Of a stretch of DNA of 33,753 bases, positions 22,197-32,745 are shown in pieces. The DNA comes from a virus (Duplodnaviria > Heunggongvirae > Uroviricota > Caudoviricetes): IMG/VR virus record IMGVR_UViG_2579778538_000002; one strand, 5' to 3'. The notes beneath the pieces were generated by a model. The model saw only the letters and a program-made list of their open reading frames with translations. It did not search any database and had not been told where the DNA came from. Position 1 is the first letter of the stretch; every line of letters begins with the position of its first letter. A program made the position numbers and the translations under genes.

Positions 22197-22235
22197 GGAG
22201 ACAGCATCACAAATACAGGGCGCGAAGGATTTTAA
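22197..22235 (-). promoter_or_regulatory. candidate activator-dependent late promoter upstream of the lysis cassette (same tripartite motif as upstream of gene I)
   Basis: Minus strand reads TTAAAATC-N9-CTGTATTT-N6-CTGTCTCC, ending about 20 nt before the holin ATG; in the divergent intergenic region 22178-22307. Confidence 0.4.
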
Positions 22236-22307
22236 AGCGCGTTAAGAGAGCCGGGGATACGGGATGTGCAGGATAAACGATGAATTATTCACAGAGGAGA
22301 ATACGAT

Positions 22308-23036
22308 ATGACGCAGACACTGAATCCGGTCATCACTGTCACCGTGTCCGGTCCTGTGGGCAGCGGTAAAAGTTACGTACTGGCGCGAATAGAGGAAGTG
22401 GTGAAACAGGAATTCGGAAACAGCGTCATTGTCGACGCCGCAGACGTGGACGGTGAGCGCCGTATGAGTGGGGATGATCTGAGCACATGGCAGAAACCAC
22501 GGGCTGGCACAGTGATCAGGCTGGAGGAATACACGGGACAGGGCCTGTTGTCATACGGCGAGGAGCGTATCTGTCGGACGAATGAGCTGCTGGATGTTAT
22601 ATGCCCCACGGGCCGGCAACCCTGGATACTGCCCGATGCACTGCATGCCACCATTGCGGCACTGATGACAGTTTACGATCAGGAGCTGCTCATGAAGGAG
22701 TTACGTAAACTCACTGGTCAGTCAACAGAATGTTGTTCGTCCCCGAAGTACGGCAAACAGGAACACATCCCGATTAACCAGCCTCCCCGGTTCTTCGACG
22801 AATACCTTCTGACACCGGAAAATAAAGCTGAGCATGAAGAGATCAAAGCGGCGTTGTTCCGGGAAATCAGGAAGATTGCTGAAATGCAACTGGAGGGCGG
22901 GCTGGACAGAGTGATGGCGAGAGGAGAATGGGCATCGCTGTTTGAAAGAGTTTCCCCGGAATTACTTCCCCTCGCACTGGCTATCGGGATTATGCAGACA
23001 GCGGATAAACCTCACTTACGTTCATTAAACACGTAA
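22308..23036 (+). CDS. P-loop NTPase, kinase-like (Walker A GPVGSGKS at residues 15-22), unknown function
   Basis: 242 aa with strong Shine-Dalgarno (GAGGAG) before ATG; N-terminal strand-P-loop-helix arrangement VITVTVSGPVGSGKSYVLARIEE and candidate Walker B SVIVDAAD; transcribed divergently from the late operon. Confidence 0.6.
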   Translation: MTQTLNPVITVTVSGPVGSGKSYVLARIEEVVKQEFGNSVIVDAADVDGERRMSGDDLSTWQKPRAGTVIRLEEYTGQGLLSYGEERICRTNELLDVICPTGRQPWILPDALHATIAALMTVYDQELLMKELRKLTGQSTECCSSPKYGKQEHIPINQPPRFFDEYLLTPENKAEHEEIKAALFREIRKIAEMQLEGGLDRVMARGEWASLFERVSPELLPLALAIGIMQTADKPHLRSLNT

Positions 23037-23416
23037 CGCATAATCCGGGATACGCATTCAGCGATGACTGCATTTTCACCGGTTTTTACTGCATCCAGAA
23101 GTGACTCTTTAAATGGTACGGGCCGGGGCTGCAGAAAGGTCGGCATGGCATTGAGCAGACAGAGCGTTTTTTCCGTGAGGACGACATCAGCCGCTCCCAC
23201 AGCCAGCAACTGAGAGTAACGAATATAGCTGTTATCCCGAAGCCATATCAGCGTATCAATAAAACACCGGCACTTTTTCTGGTCGTGATCAACCTGGTCC
23301 GGGATATCGAAAAAACCAGAATAAATCAAAACCTGAGGTGCCGGATGCGTGTTCAGTAATCGGCAGAATATTTTGCCGGTGAGTACATAAAAATCATCAT
23401 TTAAGGAGTGCATCAT
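23012..23416 (-). CDS. hypothetical protein (134 aa)
   Basis: ORF convergent with the P-loop gene (25-bp 3' overlap) and head-to-head with the 71-aa gene; AT-richer than the phage core; coding status uncertain. Confidence 0.4.
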   Translation of the reverse strand: MMHSLNDDFYVLTGKIFCRLLNTHPAPQVLIYSGFFDIPDQVDHDQKKCRCFIDTLIWLRDNSYIRYSQLLAVGAADVVLTEKTLCLLNAMPTFLQPRPVPFKESLLDAVKTGENAVIAECVSRIMRYVFNERK

Positions 23417-23630
23417 GAATCCCCGATTAACGTTAACAGAACATCAGCGCCGTGCTGAAGCAGTGAACAATGTTCTGGAAGATATTATCCGGTTATACCG
23501 CGGAGAACTGAGTGTCTGTCGTGCCGCTTTTCATTTTCAGGGAATACAAAAGCAGTTTGATACTTCTGTTTTTGCAGAAGGTATTACTTATGCCCTGGAC
23601 CGGATAAGGTCAGAAAATCGCCCCGGATAA
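23415..23630 (+). CDS. hypothetical protein (71 aa)
   Basis: ATG preceded by AAGGAG with 6-nt spacing; no recognisable motifs. Confidence 0.45.
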   Translation: MNPRLTLTEHQRRAEAVNNVLEDIIRLYRGELSVCRAAFHFQGIQKQFDTSVFAEGITYALDRIRSENRPG

Positions 23631-23820
23631 TCCCTAAACCACATTAACAGAAATCCCGCCATCCCTGCCGCATCATGAAAGAACGACCAGCCCGGCACCC
23701 GAAAGCCGGGCTGGTCATCGCCCCACAGGAATGCGCTGTGAGCCGACCAAGGTTCAGTCAGTCTCGCGAGACCTGACCAGACTGCCATATTTTTTAATAA
23801 TTGTAAAAGGCTTGCAGATT

Positions 23821-24585
23821 ATGAAAATGCAGACATTACCCATCGTGCCGTGGATTGGTGGCAAACGCCGCCTTGCAAAACACATTCTGCCGCTGTTTCC
23901 GGCGCATGAATGTTATGTGGAGCCGTTTTGTGGGGCAGCAGCGCTCTATTTTCTTAAGACACCCGGCAAGATCGAAGTCATCAATGATATCAACGGTGAA
24001 CTGGTGAATCTGTACCGGGTGGTAAAGCATCACCTGGAAGAATTTGTCCGCCAGTTCAAATGGGCGCTGGTCAGCCGTCAGATCTACAAATGGCTGCAGA
24101 TCACCCCGGAAGAAACACTGACGGATATCCAGCGTGCGGCACGGTTCTACTACCTTCAGAAGCAGGCGTTTGGCGGCAAGGTGGCAGAGCACAGCTTCGG
24201 TACCTCCACCACATCCCCGCCACGCTTCAACCTGCTACGTATTGAAGAAGAACTGTCAGCGGCACACCTGCGGCTTTCCAGAACAGTCATAGAACACATG
24301 GACTGGCAACAGTGCATTGAGCGTTATGATCGTCCGCACACGCTGTTCTACTGCGACCCACCGTACCTGGGTACGGAAGGCTATGGTGTGGATTTTCCTG
24401 AAGGGAACTACTCGCGGCTGGCAGAGCTGGCCCGGTGCATCAGAGGAAAAATGATAATTTCGGTGAACGACATCCCGCAGATGCGCGAGGTGTTCACTGG
24501 ACTGAACATACAGACAGTGAATATCAACTACAGTCTGGCGGGTAAACCCACGCCGCGCCGTGAACTGCTAATCTGCAACTTCTGA
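23821..24585 (+). CDS. DNA N6-adenine methyltransferase, Dam-like (D12 class), orphan
   Basis: N-terminal AdoMet-binding region WIGGKRR...YVEPFCGAAALYF and catalytic motif DPPY (FYCDPPYLGTEGYG) as in E. coli Dam; start set at internal ATG 23821 (MKMQTLPIV...). No restriction endonuclease candidate adjacent. Confidence 0.85.
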   Translation: MKMQTLPIVPWIGGKRRLAKHILPLFPAHECYVEPFCGAAALYFLKTPGKIEVINDINGELVNLYRVVKHHLEEFVRQFKWALVSRQIYKWLQITPEETLTDIQRAARFYYLQKQAFGGKVAEHSFGTSTTSPPRFNLLRIEEELSAAHLRLSRTVIEHMDWQQCIERYDRPHTLFYCDPPYLGTEGYGVDFPEGNYSRLAELARCIRGKMIISVNDIPQMREVFTGLNIQTVNINYSLAGKPTPRRELLICNF

Positions 24586-24616
24586 AACAAAACCGGAAAG
24601 CACAATGCTTTCCGGT
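24581..24616 (-). terminator. candidate intrinsic terminator downstream of the repressor gene (hairpin also abuts the Dam stop)
   Basis: 10-11 bp perfect stem ACCGGAAAGC-ACAAT-GCTTTCCGGT (about 24592-24616), followed on the minus strand by TTTGTTTC; no U-tract on the plus side. Confidence 0.45.
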
Positions 24617-24701: not shown

Positions 24702-25058
24702 TCAGCCTGCGATTTTTCCTGGTTTTGGCTGAGTATAGAATCGCCCAATCTCAAGAAATGAGCGTTGTTGGTCTGGTGTCATGTCGTCAAAAGTATCTAT
24801 TAGTTTTTGTTTTTCTGGGGAAATTTGATTCTGGTTTCTAGTCATACCATCTGTGCTCATTCCAGTGAGCAACCAATTTACATCAACATTAAACTCTTGA
24901 TGCATCTTTAACAGAAACTCCCCTCCAGGCATCGCCTTTCCATTTTCAATCTGACTGATACCACCATTAGAAATACCTAAACGAGCTGCAAATTCTCTCT
25001 GGTTCAACCCTGCTTTCTTCCTCACAGAAATAACGCGCTCTCCTATATCTTTGCTCAT
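24702..25058 (-). CDS. prophage repressor, XRE-family HTH (functional analogue of Mu c)
   Basis: N-terminal helix-turn-helix LNQREFAARLGISNGGISQIENGK; transcribed divergently from the early operon; start codon lies inside an operator half-site. Confidence 0.8.
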   Translation of the reverse strand: MSKDIGERVISVRKKAGLNQREFAARLGISNGGISQIENGKAMPGGEFLLKMHQEFNVDVNWLLTGMSTDGMTRNQNQISPEKQKLIDTFDDMTPDQQRSFLEIGRFYTQPKPGKIAG

Positions 25059-25104
25059 AAAAGTGAATCTCTATCTTGATATGCTCATAATTATGAGCAA
25101 TAAT
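25052..25104. promoter_or_regulatory. operator/early promoter region: perfect 18-bp palindrome TGCTCATAATTATGAGCA (25082-25099) plus a third half-site TGCTCATAA (25052-25060)
   Basis: The palindrome exactly fills the 17-bp spacer between a candidate -35 TTGATA (25076-25081) and -10 AATAAT (25099-25104) pointing into the early operon; the extra half-site overlaps the repressor start codon. Confidence 0.6.
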
Positions 25105-25151
25105 CTAACACATATAAGGCAAACATCATTGCATCAACAAAGGAGACAACG

Positions 25152-25711: not shown

Positions 25712-26632
25712 ATGGGACGTACCAAATCACCGATTAACACTGAACTGAACGCCGATGTACCGCTGTCGGATGATCTCAACGTCAGCCTGAATGCCATGAC
25801 ACAGCATCGCATGGAGATCATGCAGCAGTTTGGTGATGGACTGCCTTATGAACGTGAACGCATCGTTCACGAAGCACGTTTTTATATGGCGCAGAGTGCT
25901 GAATCTATGTTGGAAGCGGGTAAGCGGCTGATCATCTTAAAAGAAAATGAACCGCATGGTGATTTCACAAATATTCTGGAAAACGACCTCGGATTAGCAC
26001 CACAGGTAGCTCGTCGCATGATGCAGGCCAGCGTGAAATTTCTCGGCAATGGAGATGAACAGCCAAAACGCTCAGCGCTGAGCGTTTTGGGAAAAACCAA
26101 GTTATATGAACTGATGGTTCTGGATGACGAAGAACTCGACGCATTAGCTGATGGTGGAACCGTCGCCGGTGCAACGCTTGATGATATTGATCGCATGACC
26201 AGCCGCGAACTGAAGGCCGCCCTGCGTGAAGCGCGCGAAACCAACGCAGCTCAGCAACAGGTGCTTGCCGGAAAGGACGAAAAAATCAACGAACTGGCCA
26301 CAAAACTGGAGAAGAAATCGCGCCTGCAACCTCCGCCGCCAGACGAAGAACTGAAAAAATTGCGGGCGGAAGTGACGGCATTAGCGGTTGAGGCCGAATC
26401 GGCTATCGCCGTCCGGCTGTCCAGTGTTTTTGAGACCCTGTGTGAATACTGCACCAAAAACATGATCGATACCCCCAGAGATTTCATGGCCGGTCTGGTC
26501 TGCCAGATTGAACGCAGTGTTCATGCATTACGTGAGACGTTTGACCTTGAGGCCGCTCCATCGGGTAACGATGCCCCCGCCTGGCTGACCGAACCGGAAC
26601 CTGAAATCAACCGACCGGAGGATATGCAGTAA
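25712..26632 (+). CDS. hypothetical early protein, coiled-coil with Pro-rich linker
   Basis: 306 aa, between the regulators and the transposase; central heptad-like region and QPPPPDEE linker. Confidence 0.5.
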   Translation: MGRTKSPINTELNADVPLSDDLNVSLNAMTQHRMEIMQQFGDGLPYERERIVHEARFYMAQSAESMLEAGKRLIILKENEPHGDFTNILENDLGLAPQVARRMMQASVKFLGNGDEQPKRSALSVLGKTKLYELMVLDDEELDALADGGTVAGATLDDIDRMTSRELKAALREARETNAAQQQVLAGKDEKINELATKLEKKSRLQPPPPDEELKKLRAEVTALAVEAESAIAVRLSSVFETLCEYCTKNMIDTPRDFMAGLVCQIERSVHALRETFDLEAAPSGNDAPAWLTEPEPEINRPEDMQ

Positions 26633-26949
26633 TGAATACGAATAACACACAAAATACCCTGATGGACAGCCCGGAGGCACTGGGGCACGCACTGTGTAAT
26701 CTGCTGCCGGAGATGGTGCAGGGTTTCCGCGTGGTGACCCCTTCCGGTGAAATCTGCGTACCCGCACAGGAGACGCACCCGTTTGTACTGACGATGGAGG
26801 TGATGCTGATGCAGCAGATAAGACGTCTGCAGAATCAGTCAGCATTACGCCCGGTAGTTGCACCGCAACCGGTAAATACCGTGGTGAAAACCTGCGATGG
26901 CGAAACACTGTGCGACCTCGCCAGAAAAATTGCCGCCAGAATCGGATAA
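26632..26949 (+). CDS. hypothetical early protein (105 aa)
   Basis: ATGA overlap with upstream gene; no recognisable motifs. Confidence 0.45.
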   Translation: MNTNNTQNTLMDSPEALGHALCNLLPEMVQGFRVVTPSGEICVPAQETHPFVLTMEVMLMQQIRRLQNQSALRPVVAPQPVNTVVKTCDGETLCDLARKIAARIG

Positions 26950-26964
26950 CAGGGAAGACAAGCT

Positions 26965-28734
26965 ATGACCCCGGCACTGACTGAAAAACTGGTTGAAACA
27001 GCCCGCGCGGCACGTGACGCGGGGCATGGTAAACGCGGTGCAATATACGACGCTGCCTGTGCTGAACTTGGCATGTCCCGCGCCACTCTGCTGCGCAGGC
27101 TGAAGGAGGTATCTGTGACTGATAAACGCAAAAAACGCGCCGATGCCGGGCGCAGCGCCCTGACCCGCGACGAAGCCGCGCTGATATCTGCCACACTGCG
27201 TGAGGCCACCCGCAAGAACGGTAAGCGTCTCTATTCCATCGCAGATGCAGTGGAAACCCTGCGGGCTAACGGCTTTATCACCGCAGGCAGAACAGATGAA
27301 ACCACCAGTGAGTTTTTCCCGTTGTCTGAAGATGCCATCAGCCGTGCTCTGCGTAACTATGGCCTGCACCCGGAACAACTGGATGCCCCTGCACCACATA
27401 CCGAAGTGGCCAGTCTGCATCCCAATCATGTCTGGCAGATTGACGCCTCACTCTGCACGCTTTACTACCTGAGCAATGGACATAAAGGGCTGCAGGTGAT
27501 GGACAGCGCGAAGTTCTACAAGAACAAGCCCGCTAACCTTGCCCGTATCGCCAGTGACCGCGTGTGGAGTTACGAGATTACCGACCATGCCAGCGGCTGG
27601 ATTTACGTTGAGTATGTGACGGGCGCGGAATCAGGTGAGAACCTGTGTTCTGTGCTTATCAACGCCATGCAGGAGCGTGGCGGCGCAGACGTGCTGCACG
27701 GCGTGCCGAAAATACTCTATCTCGACCCCGGCTCGGCAAACACCGCGGGTATGACGAAAAACATGTGCCGCTCACTGGGCATCGACCTGATAGCGCACAA
27801 GCCGCATAACGCCCGCGCCACCGGACAGGTGGAAAAGGCGCGTGACATTATCGAACGCAAGCTGGAGCCGGGTCTGAAGTTCCGGCCGGTTCACAGTCTG
27901 GAAGAACTCAACGCGCTGGCCGCGAAATGGCGCAGCCACTTTAACGCCACGGCTGTTCACAGCCGCCACGGTAAAACCCGCACGGATATCTGGCTGAAGA
28001 TTACTGCTGAGCAGCTGAAAAAAGCGCCTTCCGTTGAGGTATGTCGTGAACTGGCTGTGGCGGCACCAGAACTCCGCAAAGTCACGCCAAAACTTCGTGT
28101 CTCGTTCCGGGGCACTGAATTTGACGTATCAACGGTACCGGGCGTACTGGTTGGTGAAAAACTGATGATTACCCGTAACCCATGGCGCAGCGATGTGGCA
28201 CAGGTGGTTCTGACCGGTGAGGACGGCCACGAGACGTTCTTCCTGGTCGAAGAGGTCAGAAAGAACGAGTTTGGCTTTGCTGAAGGCGCGGCGGTATTTG
28301 GCGAAAGTTACAAAGCCCTGCCGGAAACCCCGGCACAGATGGCGGCAAAAGAAACCGAAGCGCTGGTTACCGGTACAGACAACGCCGCAGATGCAGCCGC
28401 CGCACGCAAGGCGAAGGCGCTGCCGTTCGGCGGGCGGCTTGACCCGTATAAACATATCGACGACACCACACTTCCGGCCTATATGCCGAAGCGTGGTCAG
28501 GCCTCTGACGTACGCGGGCCGCGCACTGAACAACGTCCCATGACTCATGTGGAGGCCGCGAAAGCCCTGCGCGATAAGTTCAGCGCCGACGGCCTTACCT
28601 GGACGCCGGAACATTACCGCCAGTTAACGGCACAGTACCCGGACGGCGTACCGGAAGCCGCACTGGATGAAGTCATGGCCACGCTGACCACACCGGCCCG
28701 CAGCAGTGTTATCAGCATTGTTAACGGCAACTGA
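26965..28734 (+). CDS. DDE transposase (Mu A-type, short B3/D3112-like form)
   Basis: 589 aa; N-terminal HTH region, then DDE core with candidate catalytic residues in HVWQIDAS, YLDPGSAN and TGQVEKAR; followed by the AAA+ B-type gene as in transposable phages. Confidence 0.85.
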   Translation: MTPALTEKLVETARAARDAGHGKRGAIYDAACAELGMSRATLLRRLKEVSVTDKRKKRADAGRSALTRDEAALISATLREATRKNGKRLYSIADAVETLRANGFITAGRTDETTSEFFPLSEDAISRALRNYGLHPEQLDAPAPHTEVASLHPNHVWQIDASLCTLYYLSNGHKGLQVMDSAKFYKNKPANLARIASDRVWSYEITDHASGWIYVEYVTGAESGENLCSVLINAMQERGGADVLHGVPKILYLDPGSANTAGMTKNMCRSLGIDLIAHKPHNARATGQVEKARDIIERKLEPGLKFRPVHSLEELNALAAKWRSHFNATAVHSRHGKTRTDIWLKITAEQLKKAPSVEVCRELAVAAPELRKVTPKLRVSFRGTEFDVSTVPGVLVGEKLMITRNPWRSDVAQVVLTGEDGHETFFLVEEVRKNEFGFAEGAAVFGESYKALPETPAQMAAKETEALVTGTDNAADAAAARKAKALPFGGRLDPYKHIDDTTLPAYMPKRGQASDVRGPRTEQRPMTHVEAAKALRDKFSADGLTWTPEHYRQLTAQYPDGVPEAALDEVMATLTTPARSSVISIVNGN

Positions 28735-28744
28735 GGAGGGAAAC

Positions 28745-29911
28745 ATGCTGGTACTGAAGCAGCAACTGAAAGAGGCCCGTATTCCACAGGCGGTGGTGGC
28801 GAGAGCTGTCGATGTTTCTGAGGCCACGCTGGCCCAGATTGTGAATCATAACGCGTGGCCCCGCACCAGCCCCGGAGAAGTGCGCCGGCGTCTTGCGTCC
28901 TGGCTGGAAAGTCAGGGGATTGATACAACGAAGAGTTTTGATGCTGTACAGGGCGCGGCCACGCCCCGTACAGCGGGTACCACAGATAAAACGAGCCTCA
29001 GTGAGGAAGAGAATATGTTACTCAAAAAACAGGTGTTATTTCCAGCAACCAAAAAAGCGTTTGGTCTTTTCCGTGACCCGTTCGCCGACGAAGCCATGCA
29101 GGGTTCTGATGATGTGTTCACCACCCCGGACATTCGCTACGTGCGTGAGGCGCTGTACCAGACAGCCCGTCATGGTGGGTTTATGGCCGTCATCGGTGAG
29201 TCCGGTGCGGGTAAATCCACGCTGCGCCGCGACCTGACTGAACGTATCAACCGCGAGAATGCGCCGGTAATTGTTATCGAGCCATACATCATCGCTATGG
29301 AAGACAACGATGTGAAAGGGAAAACCCTGAAGGCAGCAGCTATTGCCGAAGCCATTATCAGTACCATCGCACCACTGGAAAGCATCAGACGCAGTCAGGA
29401 CGCCCGTTTTCGCCAGTTGCATCGCGTCCTGAAAGACAGCAGCCAGGCGGGGTTCAGCCACGTTCTGGTGATTGAGGAGGCCCACAGTCTGCCCATTCCG
29501 ACACTGAAACACCTCAAACGCTTTTTTGAGCTGGAGTCCGGTTTCAAAAAACTGCTGTCCATCGTGCTGATTGGCCAGCCGGAACTGGCGACAAAACTGT
29601 CTGAACGCAATATGGAAGTCCGTGAAGTCGTTCAGCGCTGTGAGGTGGTCGAACTTCTGCCTCTGGACAATAACCTTGAAGAATTTCTGACGTTCAAACT
29701 GCAACGGGCCGGTAAACAGCTGACGGACATTATGGACGCCGGTGCAGTGGATGCCATACGTGCCCGCCTGAGCAATCCGGGAAGTCACCGTAAAAATATG
29801 GTCAGCCTGCTGTATCCGCTGGCCGTCAGTAACCTGGTAATAGCCGCCATGAATCTGGCCGCTGAAATCGGGGTTCCACAGGTCAACGCTGACGTTGTCA
29901 AAGGGGTTTAA
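28745..29911 (+). CDS. DNA transposition ATPase (Mu B-like AAA+ protein)
   Basis: Walker A GESGAGKST, Walker B-like HVLVIEEAH; start set at ATG 28745 after GAGGAGGG; immediately downstream of the transposase. Confidence 0.8.
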   Translation: MLVLKQQLKEARIPQAVVARAVDVSEATLAQIVNHNAWPRTSPGEVRRRLASWLESQGIDTTKSFDAVQGAATPRTAGTTDKTSLSEEENMLLKKQVLFPATKKAFGLFRDPFADEAMQGSDDVFTTPDIRYVREALYQTARHGGFMAVIGESGAGKSTLRRDLTERINRENAPVIVIEPYIIAMEDNDVKGKTLKAAAIAEAIISTIAPLESIRRSQDARFRQLHRVLKDSSQAGFSHVLVIEEAHSLPIPTLKHLKRFFELESGFKKLLSIVLIGQPELATKLSERNMEVREVVQRCEVVELLPLDNNLEEFLTFKLQRAGKQLTDIMDAGAVDAIRARLSNPGSHRKNMVSLLYPLAVSNLVIAAMNLAAEIGVPQVNADVVKGV

Positions 29912-29913
29912 TA

Positions 29914-30183
29914 ATGAAATCCACCACAGGTATCAACCAGCAAATCAGCAAAGTGCAGTCAGCCATTATGGCGCTTAAGGCGACGAACACGGATGTACAA
30001 AGCATCACCATCAGGGGTAACAAACCTGTCATCCGCGTTTCCCGGAGTGCGCATTGCATGCGCATGCTTGAGCAGGGAAAGGCCTGTTATCTGTATACCG
30101 GACATGACCACAGGGGATATTTCCGTCAGGGCGTTTTCGAACTGCACGGCTGTCGCGTCGTGTGGCCGGAATCTTTGTGGTAA
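29914..30183 (+). CDS. hypothetical early protein (89 aa)
   Basis: Tightly packed after B; no recognisable motifs. Confidence 0.45.
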   Translation: MKSTTGINQQISKVQSAIMALKATNTDVQSITIRGNKPVIRVSRSAHCMRMLEQGKACYLYTGHDHRGYFRQGVFELHGCRVVWPESLW

Positions 30184-30210
30184 TCAGCACAACTGGAGAA
30201 ATCATAAAAA

Positions 30211-30741
30211 ATGGCAAAAAGTACAAAAGGTGCAAAACGTATCAAGGCCGCAGCAGCACTCTGGGTGCCGGGGACACGTGAAGAGGTCATTGAGGGAATC
30301 AGACTACTCGGTGACGCACAACGTGAACTGGTCAGGGCTGAAACAGAAATGAATGACGCCATTGGCGATATCACCGCACGTTATGCCCCGCTCACCGAGA
30401 GCCTGAAAAAACGCATGGCCGAACTGCAGTCCGGTATTCAGACATGGTGTGAGGCACACCGTGATGAACTGACCGGCAACGGGAAGGTGAAGTTCGCTAA
30501 CCTCACCACCGGCGAGGTGCAGTGGCGAAACCGTCCGCCATCAGTCAGTATCCGTGGGGCGGATAATGTTATTGAATTACTGAGACGTCTGGGGCTTGAG
30601 CGCTTTATTCGTGTAAAAGAGGAAATAAATAAAGACGCTATCCTGAATGAAAAAGAGGCCGTGAAAAATATTCCCGGTATTTCCATTAAAAGCGACATTG
30701 AGGATTTTTCAATAATTCCTTTTGAGCAGGATGTGCAGTAA
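30211..30741 (+). CDS. gam: host-nuclease inhibitor protein Gam (Mu Gam-like, Ku-like DNA end binding)
   Basis: 176 aa; near-colinear with phage Mu Gam as I recall it (MAK..KRIK.AAA...RLETEMNDAI...WCEA.RDELT..GKVK.ANL.TG.V.WR.RPPSVSIRG...ERLGL.RFIR.K.EINK.AIL...IEDFSIIPFEQ). Confidence 0.9.
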   Translation: MAKSTKGAKRIKAAAALWVPGTREEVIEGIRLLGDAQRELVRAETEMNDAIGDITARYAPLTESLKKRMAELQSGIQTWCEAHRDELTGNGKVKFANLTTGEVQWRNRPPSVSIRGADNVIELLRRLGLERFIRVKEEINKDAILNEKEAVKNIPGISIKSDIEDFSIIPFEQDVQ

Positions 30742-30838
30742 ACACACCACGTTAATTATTTAATAAAAACATTTTCTTTTTTATTCCGACGTCAGCGCCG
30801 CGGGCTTCTGCACGCCGGAAACAGAGGAGAATTAAATC

Positions 30839-31033
30839 ATGATATTTAAATGTATTCAGTGCGAGAGGGATATAACAGCCCTGCGTTTTCACAGCGCCAT
30901 CGCCGTGATGTCCGGTAAATACCACATCCCTGCGGTACGCGTCACCCTGGTCTGCCCGTACTGCAGCCAGCATTTTTCGGCAGACGTGCCCGTCATGGAA
31001 TTCTCCCGCCCTGACAGGGAGGACTCGCAATGA
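30839..31033 (+). CDS. small zinc-ribbon protein (CxxC...CxxC)
   Basis: 64 aa with CIQC and CPYC pairs about 30 residues apart; Shine-Dalgarno GAGGAG upstream. Confidence 0.45.
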   Translation: MIFKCIQCERDITALRFHSAIAVMSGKYHIPAVRVTLVCPYCSQHFSADVPVMEFSRPDREDSQ

Positions 31034-31302
31034 TTACCCCACAGGAAGCACGACAGCGCACCCGAACCCTTGTTGAACACTATGTCAACGAGTGTGAATG
31101 CCGCGACCTCACCGATGTGAAGCACGTCCTGACGGCGCTAATCAGCATGGCCACACAGGCCATTGTGGCGACCAACGGAAAGGAGGCTGCCCTGCAGGTA
31201 CTGATGAACACACTCACCCACACGGCAGAGCATGAGGTGCCGTACCGGATGGAAACCACTGCAGAAGGCGGCCTGCACATCACCGTCAGCCGGAAGCACT
31301 GA
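31030..31302 (+). CDS. hypothetical early protein (90 aa)
   Basis: ATGA overlap with upstream gene; contains CEC motif; no family assigned. Confidence 0.4.
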   Translation: MITPQEARQRTRTLVEHYVNECECRDLTDVKHVLTALISMATQAIVATNGKEAALQVLMNTLTHTAEHEVPYRMETTAEGGLHITVSRKH

Positions 31303-31311
31303 GGGCGCGGC

Positions 31312-31608
31312 ATGACACGAAACACCGAACTCACCCGCACCGCCCTCTACCGTCTGGCCCTGCAGCGTTTCGGGCCGGACGCACAGGCCCTGAAACTGGC
31401 AGAAGAGGCCGCTGAACTGGCGGCCAGTGCCGCCCGCAACCTGAACGGACAGGGCAGCGAAAGTGACCTCGCGGCAGAGCTGGCAGACGTGGAAATCATG
31501 ACAGAGCAACTGCGCCTTCAGGGGATGGACCGGCTGATTGACTTCCACAAACAGAAAAAACTGGAACGTCTGGCTGCACGACTGGGCGTGATTTACACGA
31601 ACGAGTAA
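31312..31608 (+). CDS. MazG-like nucleotide pyrophosphohydrolase (small all-alpha NTP-PPase)
   Basis: 98 aa with paired acidic motifs LAEEAAELAASA and AAELADVEIM, resembling the EExxE...ExxD metal-binding motifs of MazG-type proteins; assignment from motif only. Confidence 0.5.
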   Translation: MTRNTELTRTALYRLALQRFGPDAQALKLAEEAAELAASAARNLNGQGSESDLAAELADVEIMTEQLRLQGMDRLIDFHKQKKLERLAARLGVIYTNE

Positions 31609-31622
31609 CCGGGAGGCATTCA

Positions 31623-31838
31623 ATGGCTGACATACTCAGGGAAATCACCGCATGGACACTGATTCTTACTGGCCTGGCGACATGCCTCAGTGCGGGGGCA
31701 GCCCTGGCTGCCCTGCTGATGCACATAACAACACAGTGGTTATGGGAAAAGCTTAAAGCAGCATACAGCCTGAAAGAGCTGTCCGACGCTGTCCGGGCAT
31801 GGAAACGGCAGAAAAATACCGGAGATACAGAACAATGA
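31623..31838 (+). CDS. small membrane protein (one TMD)
   Basis: 71 aa; hydrophobic segment WTLILTGLATCLSAGAALAALLM. Confidence 0.4.
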   Translation: MADILREITAWTLILTGLATCLSAGAALAALLMHITTQWLWEKLKAAYSLKELSDAVRAWKRQKNTGDTEQ

Positions 31839-32518
31839 CAGACCAGAATAAACACATTGAGAAACTGAAAAAGTTGCTGGCGCTGGCCGCATCCGGCAAC
31901 CCGCACGAGGCCGCTCTGGCACTGCGCCGAGCCCGTAAACTGATGGATGTTCACGGCATCACACATTCCGACATTGCTATGAGTGATATTGATGAAACCA
32001 TCAGTCACTACTGGCCGACAGGCAGTCTCCGTCCACCGCGCTACATGCTGGGCCTGATGAACATCATCCGCGAGGTATTTGGTGTTAACTCCATCATTCA
32101 CCCCGGCACGCATCCGTCTGTGGGGTTCTACGGCAACCGGGAACGTGCGGCACTGGCTGCATACACCTGGGAAGTGCTGGCCCGTCAGCTGAAAAAGGCG
32201 CGTCAGCAGTATATCAGTGCACAGAACAAAAGAATAAAAACCGCCACCCGCACCAGCCGTGGAGACCAGTTTGCCGAAGGCTGGGTGCTGGCCGTTATCA
32301 GTGAAATACAGTCCTTTGCCCTGACCGATGATGAGCGTGAACTGATGCAGCAGTGGCTGGAACATAAATACCCGCAGACGCAAACCACCAGGGCGCGTAA
32401 ACCGGGAAGAAGCCGCAATGGCGACGCCTCGCGCTATGCGGGGTTTCGTGAAGGGCAGAACGTCAGACTGCACCGCCCGGTCAGTGGGCAGGAACAACAG
32501 AAACTGGAGGCCAGATGA
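31835..32518 (+). CDS. DUF2786-like early protein
   Basis: Start set at ATG 31835 (GGAGA upstream); N-terminus HIEKLKKLLALAASGNPHEAALALRRARKLMDVHGI matches the DUF2786 pattern common in prophage early regions (from memory). Confidence 0.5.
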   Translation: MTDQNKHIEKLKKLLALAASGNPHEAALALRRARKLMDVHGITHSDIAMSDIDETISHYWPTGSLRPPRYMLGLMNIIREVFGVNSIIHPGTHPSVGFYGNRERAALAAYTWEVLARQLKKARQQYISAQNKRIKTATRTSRGDQFAEGWVLAVISEIQSFALTDDERELMQQWLEHKYPQTQTTRARKPGRSRNGDASRYAGFREGQNVRLHRPVSGQEQQKLEAR

Positions 32519-32745
32519 TTACGCTATCAGGTAAAAGCCGGAAATTAAAAGCCTGCCGAATATCTGCCAGATACCTTTTTGCCCGCGCCTTTTTTAAGAA
32601 CGTCAGGCCGGGGATCACAATTGGTGTTATTGCCGGACGCGAACAGGTTGAAAAATACATGTCAGGTGCATGGTGGAATAACGACCCTGTCATTGCTGCC
32701 CGTAATATTCATATCGAATGGGGAGGTATTCAGAATGACTACTGA
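32515..32745 (+). CDS. hypothetical early protein (76 aa)
   Basis: ATGA overlap with upstream gene; basic; no family assigned. Confidence 0.35.
   Translation: MITLSGKSRKLKACRISARYLFARAFFKNVRPGITIGVIAGREQVEKYMSGAWWNNDPVIAARNIHIEWGGIQNDY

Follow-up and report, generated by a model that had tools for sequence, protein, structure and literature searches.

A conserved orphan DNA methyltransferase of BcepMu-like phages and the predicted two-state RNA leader upstream of its gene

What would a temperate phage do with a DNA methyltransferase (MTase) that stands without an endonuclease beside its immunity genes, and what controls such an enzyme? The question is raised by a 33,753-nt stretch of viral DNA (IMG/VR record IMGVR_UViG_2579778538_000002, Caudoviricetes; "the window" below means this whole stretch), in which an open reading frame (ORF) at 23821–24585 on the + strand encodes 254 amino acids plus stop. 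An earlier note on this DNA had described the gene as an orphan Dam-like adenine MTase, with a possible link to the lysis-lysogeny switch. With moderate confidence, we favor a reading in which the gene is a stable, selected component of BcepMu-type phages and specifies a mom-like methylase, gated post-transcriptionally, that would mark or protect progeny DNA. The observations behind this reading are the enzyme family and its motifs, identity to a gene of Escherichia coli EC958, synteny among relatives, purifying selection, and a covarying leader with two competing folds upstream of the coding sequence.

As first noted, the protein is a D12-class MTase with a DPPY motif, starting at 23821. Pfam family PF02086 (MethyltransfD12) matches residues 11–234 of 254 (E = 6e-29; 102 bits against a cutoff of 22), and the protein is also matched by PHROG 56 (1.5e-100) and by the PADLOC profile MTase_II PDLC03253 (6.4e-112). 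Motif I (EPFCGAAA) occupies residues 34–41 and motif IV (DPPY, within FYCDPPYLG) residues 179–182; alignments to DpnM (E = 6.5e-17) and E. coli Dam (EcoDam; 5.5e-14) place motifs X (PWIGGKRRL), I and IV in the order of the alpha class, with motif I N-terminal to DPPY and the recognition region between them. Where motif I has its second glycine, the window MTase has an alanine; family members have either Gly or Ala there. The start at 23821 is backed by an ATGAAA with AAAGG before it, kept in all relatives; a 284-aa version from 23731 (GenBank record of phage PhiKM) was rejected, its 30 extra codons crossing a covarying non-coding RNA structure and containing stop codons in relatives. From these features we predict a functional orphan alpha-class (D12) DNA methyltransferase, a prediction that shares the moderate confidence given to the explanation as a whole. 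The product would presumably be N6-methyladenine (m6A); M.CbeI, likewise alpha-class with DPPY but described by its depositors as an N4-cytosine enzyme, counsels caution on this point.

To place the gene among its relatives, we used 162 loci whose encoded proteins are 62–100% identical to the window MTase. Compared with nine relatives, dN/dS is 0.05–0.11 (with dS often saturated, >1), every locus examined has an intact ORF of 254–256 aa, and the catalytic motifs do not vary. A low transcript level in the EC958 lysogen and the lack of an assigned methylation motif there (Forde et al., 2015, PMC4659465) could be read as signs of a silent, decaying remnant, the outcome that the earlier note had named as fatal to its own proposal. 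Yet a dN/dS this low, obtained with relatives at dS >1, in a gene that is intact wherever examined and keeps its catalytic motifs, leaves hardly any probability for decay, and we treat a remnant as excluded because of that ratio.

The control of the gene appears to lie directly upstream of it. Klebsiella phage KP12 and 18 genome loci form a syntenic set of 19 enterobacterial loci, and when the 260 nt upstream of the start are aligned among syntenic loci, ~150 nt are conserved with evident compensatory changes; like sequence patterns occur upstream in distant Betaproteobacterial relatives. In the window this region is a structured 5' leader of the MTase mRNA of ~160 nt (23660–23838, +, as the whole match to a covariance model, 158.7 bits), which folds better than all 200 shuffled versions (minimum free energy z-score −3.7). 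Rfam 15 returned only chance-level matches within 23400–24000 (E of at least 0.66, far below gathering scores). The covariance model itself was built from 26 enterobacterial leaders with helices P1, P3-outer and P5 only, leaving out P2 and P4, and was searched against 100 sources (909 kb). All but one of its full-length + strand matches there lie directly upstream of the start of a family MTase, or of com in com-containing loci, and the sole exception (1790–1950 in locus L094) is a truncated second copy (a 16-nt motif plus P1) before a gene inserted ~1 kb upstream of the MTase. In phage B3 the model matches upstream of com-dam; Mu and BcepMu yield no match.

Pairing was counted in a 76-row alignment derived from this model, which was not fitted to P2 or P4. 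Helix P1 (23685–23716, +; GACCAGCCCGG ... CCGGGCTGGTC) covaries at 12 of 12 modelled pairs across the 76 sequences, and its loop has a conserved 3' A-R-C in relatives. P2 (23724–23740, +; CACAG-N7-CTGTG) is a local hairpin with 95.3% of cells paired, the pair types being AU:52/GC:15 at columns 131-158 and AU:61/UA:5/GC:2 at columns 133-156. Its 3' arm is also used by P4, a 9-bp long-range helix spanning ~70 nt, whose 5' arm (CTGTGAGCC; 23736–23744, +) consists of the P2 3' arm plus four nucleotides (AGCC) and whose 3' arm (GGCTTGCAG; 23809–23817, +; 91.2% of cells paired) is proximal to the Shine-Dalgarno (SD) sequence, 4 nt before the ATG. Pair 158-323 of P4 is UA:44/CG:12/UG:5, and the helix is rich in G-U pairs (e.g., 159-322, GU:44), which pair only in + strand RNA. 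The two arms of P4 enclose P3 (23749–23787, +), with outer pairing of the AAGGYT/AGCCT type that is weakened to AGACT in the window lineage, and P5 (23790–23808, +), a small U-rich/A-rich hairpin just upstream of the SD with 6 of 6 modelled pairs covarying across relatives. P3 surrounds a variable inner hairpin (GTCAGTCTCG/CGAGAC-C-TGAC), and these inner stems are wholly different between lineages. The X:b plus c:d pairings of an RNAalifold consensus (MAFFT alignment) were set aside as alternatives only, since their columns are near-invariant and hence uninformative.

The case for a two-state switch rests on alignment column 158, which covaries with both 131 (in P2) and 323 (in P4): the triple of columns 131, 158 and 323 is A-U-A in 43 sequences, G-C-G in 12, and A-U-G, a wobble intermediate, in five, among them the window. 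A separate G-C-G triple is found in locus L142 at the neighbouring columns 133/156/325. One arm common to P2 and P4 and covarying with both partners is the mark of two mutually exclusive helices. When either helix is forced, the resulting folds are near-isoenergetic (−60.8 kcal/mol with P2 vs. −61.0 with P4 in the window; median difference 0.95 over 64 leaders), and in the fold ensemble the segment next to the SD is largely engaged in pairs (unpaired probability 0.27 in the window, median 0.26). According to these models, P4 pairing can occlude the ribosome-binding region of the MTase, and the leader can adopt two mutually exclusive folds. The competing helices typical of the com-mom/com-dam module are thus seen here computationally, as three-way P2/P4 covariation and near-isoenergetic folds. 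A broader proposal, which we advance tentatively and at somewhat less than even confidence, is that the leader represents an undescribed class of cis-regulatory RNA switch for a widespread phage MTase family and some com-dam operons of Beta- and Gammaproteobacteria, working without Com. Possible ways of opening it, within that proposal, are a kinetic window (the nascent RNA being open and the refolded RNA closed by P4) or a ligand or protein reading the conserved P1 loop.

Conservation upstream of a gene might instead reflect elements acting as DNA (for instance the palindromes of a promoter or operator) or the remains of a com gene, rather than a functional RNA switch. P2 and the P3 core are indeed DNA palindromes, a conserved 16-nt motif sits at the 5' edge of the region, and the DNA at the 3' end of com in com-dam loci is similar to a portion of the leader. 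However, pairing is kept while sequence changes, with P1 and P5 covarying at each pair and the inner stems of P3 differing entirely, and P4 bridges its ~70 nt while covarying with the very column that P2 uses. Frequent G-U pairs point the same way, as they pair on the + strand transcript only, and no ORF is conserved: a coding explanation was rejected, the 33-codon ORF from 23675 (+) being unconserved and without ATG in most relatives. We therefore regard a DNA-level origin of this conservation as quite improbable.

If the leader is such a switch, which known modules does it resemble? A gene for the zinc-finger protein Com (PF10122, E = 2.5e-13) overlaps the MTase start in 32 of the 162 family loci, which is the arrangement of phage B3, and com-containing loci have GGCC-N2-3-GAGCC followed by a short helix over the MTase SD. 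This sequence agrees with the target published for Com, a CC(N)2-3GAG placed in a hairpin loop beside a translation-inhibition structure (PMC6483171). The com-dam pair of the Pseudomonas phage B3 (ORF47 Com, ORF48 Dam) is the closest parallel in that both phages are transposable, ORF48 is 64% identical to the window MTase and the same leader lies upstream; it differs in that the Com gene is placed between leader and MTase and the operon among tail genes, whereas the window has Com nowhere. Mu com-mom, like the window, is a case of a transposable-phage DNA-modification gene whose ribosome-binding site is tied up in an mRNA helix, in competition with a hairpin farther upstream (predicted in the window), and the silence of mom in the Mu lysogen is a likeness that we draw to the window MTase. 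Mom, in contrast, is not a methyltransferase but an acyltransferase-fold enzyme forming acetamido-adenine, Mu lacks a match to the leader model, and its opener is Com binding CC(N)2-3GAG, for which the window offers neither protein nor motif. Hia5, Hin1523 and Nma1821 (Drozdz et al., 2012, PMC3299994) are orphan, Dam-related DPPY MTases that replace mom in Mu-like prophages, described as non-specific adenine MTases, silent in lysogens, with a proposed role in broad anti-restriction protection. They belong to a sequence family different from that of the window MTase, and B3 ORF48, a member of the latter family, was not among the 1000 sequences closest to Hia5 (PMC3299994).

Taken with these parallels, the favored reading would run as follows. 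The ~160-nt leader would adopt two mutually exclusive folds: an open one, with the local P2 hairpin formed and the ribosome-binding region free, and a closed one, in which the P2 3' arm plus four bases pairs with the SD-AUG segment as P4 and blocks translation. The module would be a com-less relative of B3 com-dam and Mu com-mom, with the MTase made, by analogy, mainly in lytic growth. The enzyme would then methylate phage DNA and adjoining host DNA before packaging. Progeny DNA would thereby carry a mark, or protection from restriction, into the next host, and the lysogen chromosome would stay largely unmodified. Late expression, a trigger for the switch and protection of the progeny are all inferred.

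Part of this gene's biology was already on record through its host. The window corresponds to Escherichia phage PhiKM, a Bcepmuvirus from uropathogenic E. coli (3.2 kb around the MTase are 100% identical), and 633 of 5426 complete E. coli genomes match this region, 462 of them over at least 80% of the query, with many prophages 100% identical. EC958, of sequence type 131 (ST131), carries the same BcepMu-like prophage at 1.02–1.042 Mb beside ycaL, and its product EC958_RS05075 (WP_000783854.1, "DNA adenine methylase") is identical to the window MTase at 254 of 254 positions. Forde et al. (2015, PMC4659465) catalogued in EC958 the type II orphan MTase M.EcoMIV (EC958_1101; prophage Phi2, D12 domain PF02086), which they found identical in >80 E. 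coli genomes and absent from ST131 clade A; REBASE listed it as a putative type IIA enzyme with no prediction, no recognition site being available for any homologue of >65% identity. In that study its transcription in the EC958 lysogen (mid-log, LB) was significantly below that of dam, and single-molecule real-time (SMRT) sequencing yielded no methylation motif assignable to it. By position and description, EC958_1101 is almost certainly EC958_RS05075; the features of M.EcoMIV (PF02086, orphan, prophage-borne) fit, and nothing differs. The gene on its own is ordinary and already catalogued, because the window protein equals EC958_RS05075, taken as M.EcoMIV. The M.EcoMIV paper gives neither target, nor context analysis, nor leader. 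What is added here is that the gene is a core, selected phage function, unlikely to be a simple Dam, with a conserved bistable leader absent from Rfam.

Several points weigh against a methylase gated by its leader. The leader sequences are related and show few independent substitutions, so that the covariation may rest on few evolutionary events. Com is missing from the window: a hidden Markov model (HMM) made with 16 Com sequences reached no better than E = 0.49 in any of the stop-to-stop ORFs (25 aa or longer). Inspection of 23660–23823 found no CC(N)2-3GAG; with neither a Com homologue nor a Com motif, the window MTase is a com-less member of the same regulatory tradition. Within the leader, the substitutions of the PhiKM/ST131 lineage have mutated the mid-leader AGCCT to AGACT and created a sigma-70-like site (23773–23801, +; CTGACC-17-AATAAT), which might bypass the leader and give low, switch-independent expression in lysogens. 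The low MTase mRNA in the EC958 lysogen (PMC4659465) shows that control is at least partly transcriptional, and in Burkholderia the phi1026b homologue (65% identical) is clearly transcribed in the lysogen (21,563 reads per kilobase per million, RPKM), so that "lytic only" does not hold generally for the family. As E. coli already methylates GATC, an enzyme with that target would add little protection in this host. Finally, we found no published activity, target or timing for the window MTase or any close homologue.

Some of the same evidence suits a lysogenic-conversion gene, expressed from the prophage and modifying the host chromosome, with effects that could include a "molecular vaccine" against incoming restriction-modification (R-M) systems, exclusion of other phages, or changed host expression. 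The gene belongs to a variable accessory region and to neither the early nor the late operon, it is widespread in ST131 clades B and C, the phi1026b homologue is counted among differentially expressed morons besides being transcribed in the lysogen, and the sigma-70-like site inside the leader is lineage-specific. We nevertheless judge conversion unlikely, together with its proposed effects: transcription in EC958 is significantly below dam with no methylated motif assignable (PMC4659465), a conserved leader that sequesters the ribosome-binding site argues for restricted rather than constitutive expression, and the MTase, unlike its neighbours, is fixed in the phage lineage.

Transcriptional signals may nonetheless take part in the control of the gated methylase. 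The conserved 16-nt motif (TAAACCACATTAACAG; 23635–23650, +) marks the 5' edge of the conserved control region and is a possible promoter or activator site. A second copy (TAAAGCGCGTTAAGAG; 22233–22248, +) lies between the holin gene and orf242, where it gives on the − strand a TAAAAT −10-like hexamer for the lysis operon, so that copies of the motif (consensus TAAA-N3-CRTTAAYAG) precede both orf242 and the MTase leader. The motif is not significant alone (4 matches at up to 2 mismatches vs. 0.93 expected). In Photorhabdus the MTase leader directly abuts the lysis-operon promoter region, with ~240 bp between the two start codons. This arrangement is compatible with co-regulation of the MTase with late genes, and the truncated copy in L094 suggests that accessory-gene insertions at this hot spot copy the 5' part of the MTase control region.

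Is the MTase truly an orphan, and does its place beside the repressor matter? The layout of the window is that of BcepMu: tail, head and lysis genes (holin PF13272, SLT transglycosylase) on the − strand at 449–22210, then a variable region (22308–24585), a Cro/CI-type helix-turn-helix (HTH) repressor gene (24702–25058, −) convergent with the MTase, and an early operon on the + strand from 25152 with a ner-like gene, an IclR-type HTH gene, DUF3102, a transposase (26965–28734), a B-like ATPase, gam and, last, a Mor-family activator (from 33364 to the end). Between lysis operon and leader lies a lineage-specific accessory insertion of three ORFs (22308–23630), which parts the MTase control region from the lysis-operon promoter: orf242 (22308–23036, +), with an N-terminal Walker A motif (GPVGSGKS) and a weak P-loop match, orf134 (23012–23416, −) and orf71 (23415–23630, +), whose start overlaps that of orf134 by 2 nt. 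Otherwise all three match only PHROGs of unknown function, in agreement with the earlier description of the flanking genes as small unknowns and the repressor, and no nuclease or defence match was found among the MTase neighbours in Pfam, PHROGs, PADLOC and NCBIfam.

In KP12 and the 18 genome loci (from Trabulsiella, Buttiauxella, Pantoea, Brenneria, Symbiopectobacterium, Photorhabdus, Xenorhabdus, Citrobacter, Serratia and Erwinia), an MTase 80–87% identical to that of the window occupies the same slot, from holin to early operon, while its surroundings vary by lineage (lipoproteins, other HTH proteins or repressors, P-loop ORFs, or nothing). By tblastn, orf242, orf134 and orf71 were undetected in all 19 syntenic loci; ORF translations do reveal, upstream of the MTase, P-loop proteins like orf242 in L013 (Citrobacter) and L017 (Serratia). 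Non-homologous repressors are frequent among these loci, and transposase identity falls to 49–59% in the Photorhabdus/Xenorhabdus lineage, with the MTase still at 81–83%. No neighbour is conserved with the MTase across the 19 loci, as a type II R-M partner would be, and the MTase is a true orphan for want of such a conserved partner; that it is encoded alone, as had been proposed, is confirmed at this wider scale. BcepMu has no MTase at this position. Farther relatives (58–66% identical) occur in other temperate phages, namely B3, phiE125/phi1026b/KS9, VP882, phiHAP-1, Shewanella MuM16-1 and Acinetobacter phages, and in many viral contigs the gene stands at the extreme end of a 35–40 kb genome. 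Judged from these comparisons, the MTase is a fixed, selected component of enterobacterial BcepMu-like transposable phages.

A role in the lysis-lysogeny switch, in which the enzyme would methylate operators or promoters close to the repressor or its transcript would read through, antisense, into the repressor gene, is suggested by the convergent orientation of the two genes, ~116 bp apart. The hairpin between them (24592–24616, −) is followed by a T-run on the − strand only, so we assign it as a terminator of the repressor gene; with no T-run on the + strand, read-through antisense to the repressor mRNA is conceivable. However, other lineages have one to four unrelated genes between MTase and repressor, and the repressors themselves are non-homologous; the conserved partner of the MTase is its own mRNA leader and not an operator; BcepMu has the switch and no MTase; and the repressor-ner intergenic region (25059–25151), an operator region of the kind in which the earlier note had suggested counting target sites, contains no GATC, which is relevant if that is the target. 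The immunity-switch link of the earlier note is unsupported, as adjacency to the repressor is specific to the window lineage, and we consider such a role very unlikely.

A few other features of this part of the genome were noticed. The strongest sigma-70-like site of the region (25076–25104, +; TTGATA-17-AATAAT, 10 of 12 matches) lies between the repressor and ner-like genes and is a likely early promoter. In Brenneria sp. (L007:6785–8976), a pair of large ORFs on the opposite strand (393 and 335 aa) is inserted at this hot spot, with the MTase on one side and the immunity genes on the other, and may form a defence or accessory cassette. A 64-aa ORF in the early/middle operon (30839–31033, +) has a CxxC ... 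CxxC zinc ribbon and may encode an RNA- or DNA-binding regulator; it is present in the RefSeq annotation, where the PhiKM record has an opposite-strand ORF instead. As a candidate for Com it was rejected by Pfam and by the Com HMM, and as a general partner of the leader it was set aside, its occurrence in phage records being confined to three enterobacterial BcepMu-like phages, with homologues only in KP12 and Phi06_2974 B (~55% identical).

Which site, then, would the enzyme methylate? "Dam-like", as the earlier note put it, is borne out as to the D12 class and unsupported in the sense of GATC specificity. The window MTase has its alpha-class D12 fold family and its motifs X, I and IV in common with EcoDam, T4 Dam and DpnM (E from 1e-14 to 1e-17), GATC m6A MTases of solved structure, but it departs from them in the GATC-reading residues and the hairpin sequence. 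The MTase scores 67 bits on the E. coli Dam equivalog model NF008152 (cutoff 441), and the loop alignment, ungapped but uncertain, replaces the EcoDam GATC-contact residues (K9->P, L122->K, R124->A, P134->S) and reads FGGKVAE at the hairpin where Dam has [FY]NG[LM]xR. Because these contact residues are replaced, the MTase is probably not a Dam orthologue. Taken alone, the recognition segment finds its best PDB match in M.CbeI (7M6B; E = 0.03, F-S/G-G-x-V ... RF), an alpha-class MTase with DPPY that its depositors describe as making N4-methylcytosine (m4C), although overall similarity to M.CbeI is weaker than to DpnM (5.9e-12 vs. 6.5e-17).

GATC could still be the target, and this alternative is compatible with a gated methylase: an isospecific Dam (GATC, m6A) would top up host Dam during burst replication and keep progeny fully methylated, thereby avoiding MutH/SeqA effects or protecting against MboI-type restriction. 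We put GATC as the target at roughly one in three, and view the isospecific role, with either benefit, as a possibility to be taken seriously though at well under even confidence. The TIGR00571 "dam subfamily" score barely exceeds its cutoff (116.6 vs. 114.85 bits), DpnM and EcoDam, both GATC enzymes, rank best among full-length PDB matches, the putative recognition segment hardly varies within the family, and the absence of an extra motif in lysogen methylomes is explained equally well by silence and by a GATC signal hidden behind host Dam. Upstream of the start (≤130 nt), moreover, six loci have 2–4 GATC sites (L043, L064, L123, L124 and L125, with proteins 64–70% identical to the window MTase, and L134, 67%), clusters that resemble self-target sites in an autoregulated promoter; 135 of the 162 loci have none. 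Against this stand the unconserved GATC-reading residues, the FGGKVAE hairpin and the equivalog score, the M.CbeI-like recognition segment (not that of a GATC enzyme), the REBASE entry as putative type IIA with no characterised homologue above 65% identity (PMC4659465), and the under-representation of GATC in the phage itself (85 observed vs. 163 expected, 0.52). Methylome papers on Y. enterocolitica and Salmonella are not decisive on the specificity of homologues.

Two further observations concern GATC. The subgroup with upstream GATC clusters (Yersinia pekkanenii, a Pantoea symbiont, viral contigs) is without the leader, and its GATCs lie in inverted repeats (e.g., TTGATCGGTTAAATCGATCAA), an arrangement that looks like methylation-sensitive or operator control. 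In the window, a 6.1-kb early stretch (26468–32612; transposase A, B-like ATPase, gam, small ORFs) is devoid of GATC, of which 18.2 would be expected (P ~1e-8), with all other 4-mer palindromes at expected frequency; the depletion is common to KP12-type relatives (0–3 observed vs. 10–14 expected) and is not found in Photorhabdus/Xenorhabdus relatives nor in BcepMu (61 vs. 64.6). We dropped this depletion as evidence on the target, as it does not follow MTase presence.

The prophage is present in about one in nine complete E. coli genomes, including the pandemic ST131, and its MTase is among the unassigned ones of that clone. That the enzyme is a conserved, selected phage function and probably not a copy of Dam guides what experimenters should test. 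Were its target short or relaxed, the enzyme would bear on phage host range and on phage therapy aimed at ST131, and would be of interest as a methylation tool. The leader, for its part, offers a compact case of two-helix exclusivity with three-way covariation, and connects com-less methylase genes to the com-mom paradigm. If the proposed switch is real, the leader would be, in com-less phages, the sole gate silencing a potentially genome-wide methylase in the lysogen, and it may explain why such prophage methylases stay invisible in lysogen methylomes.

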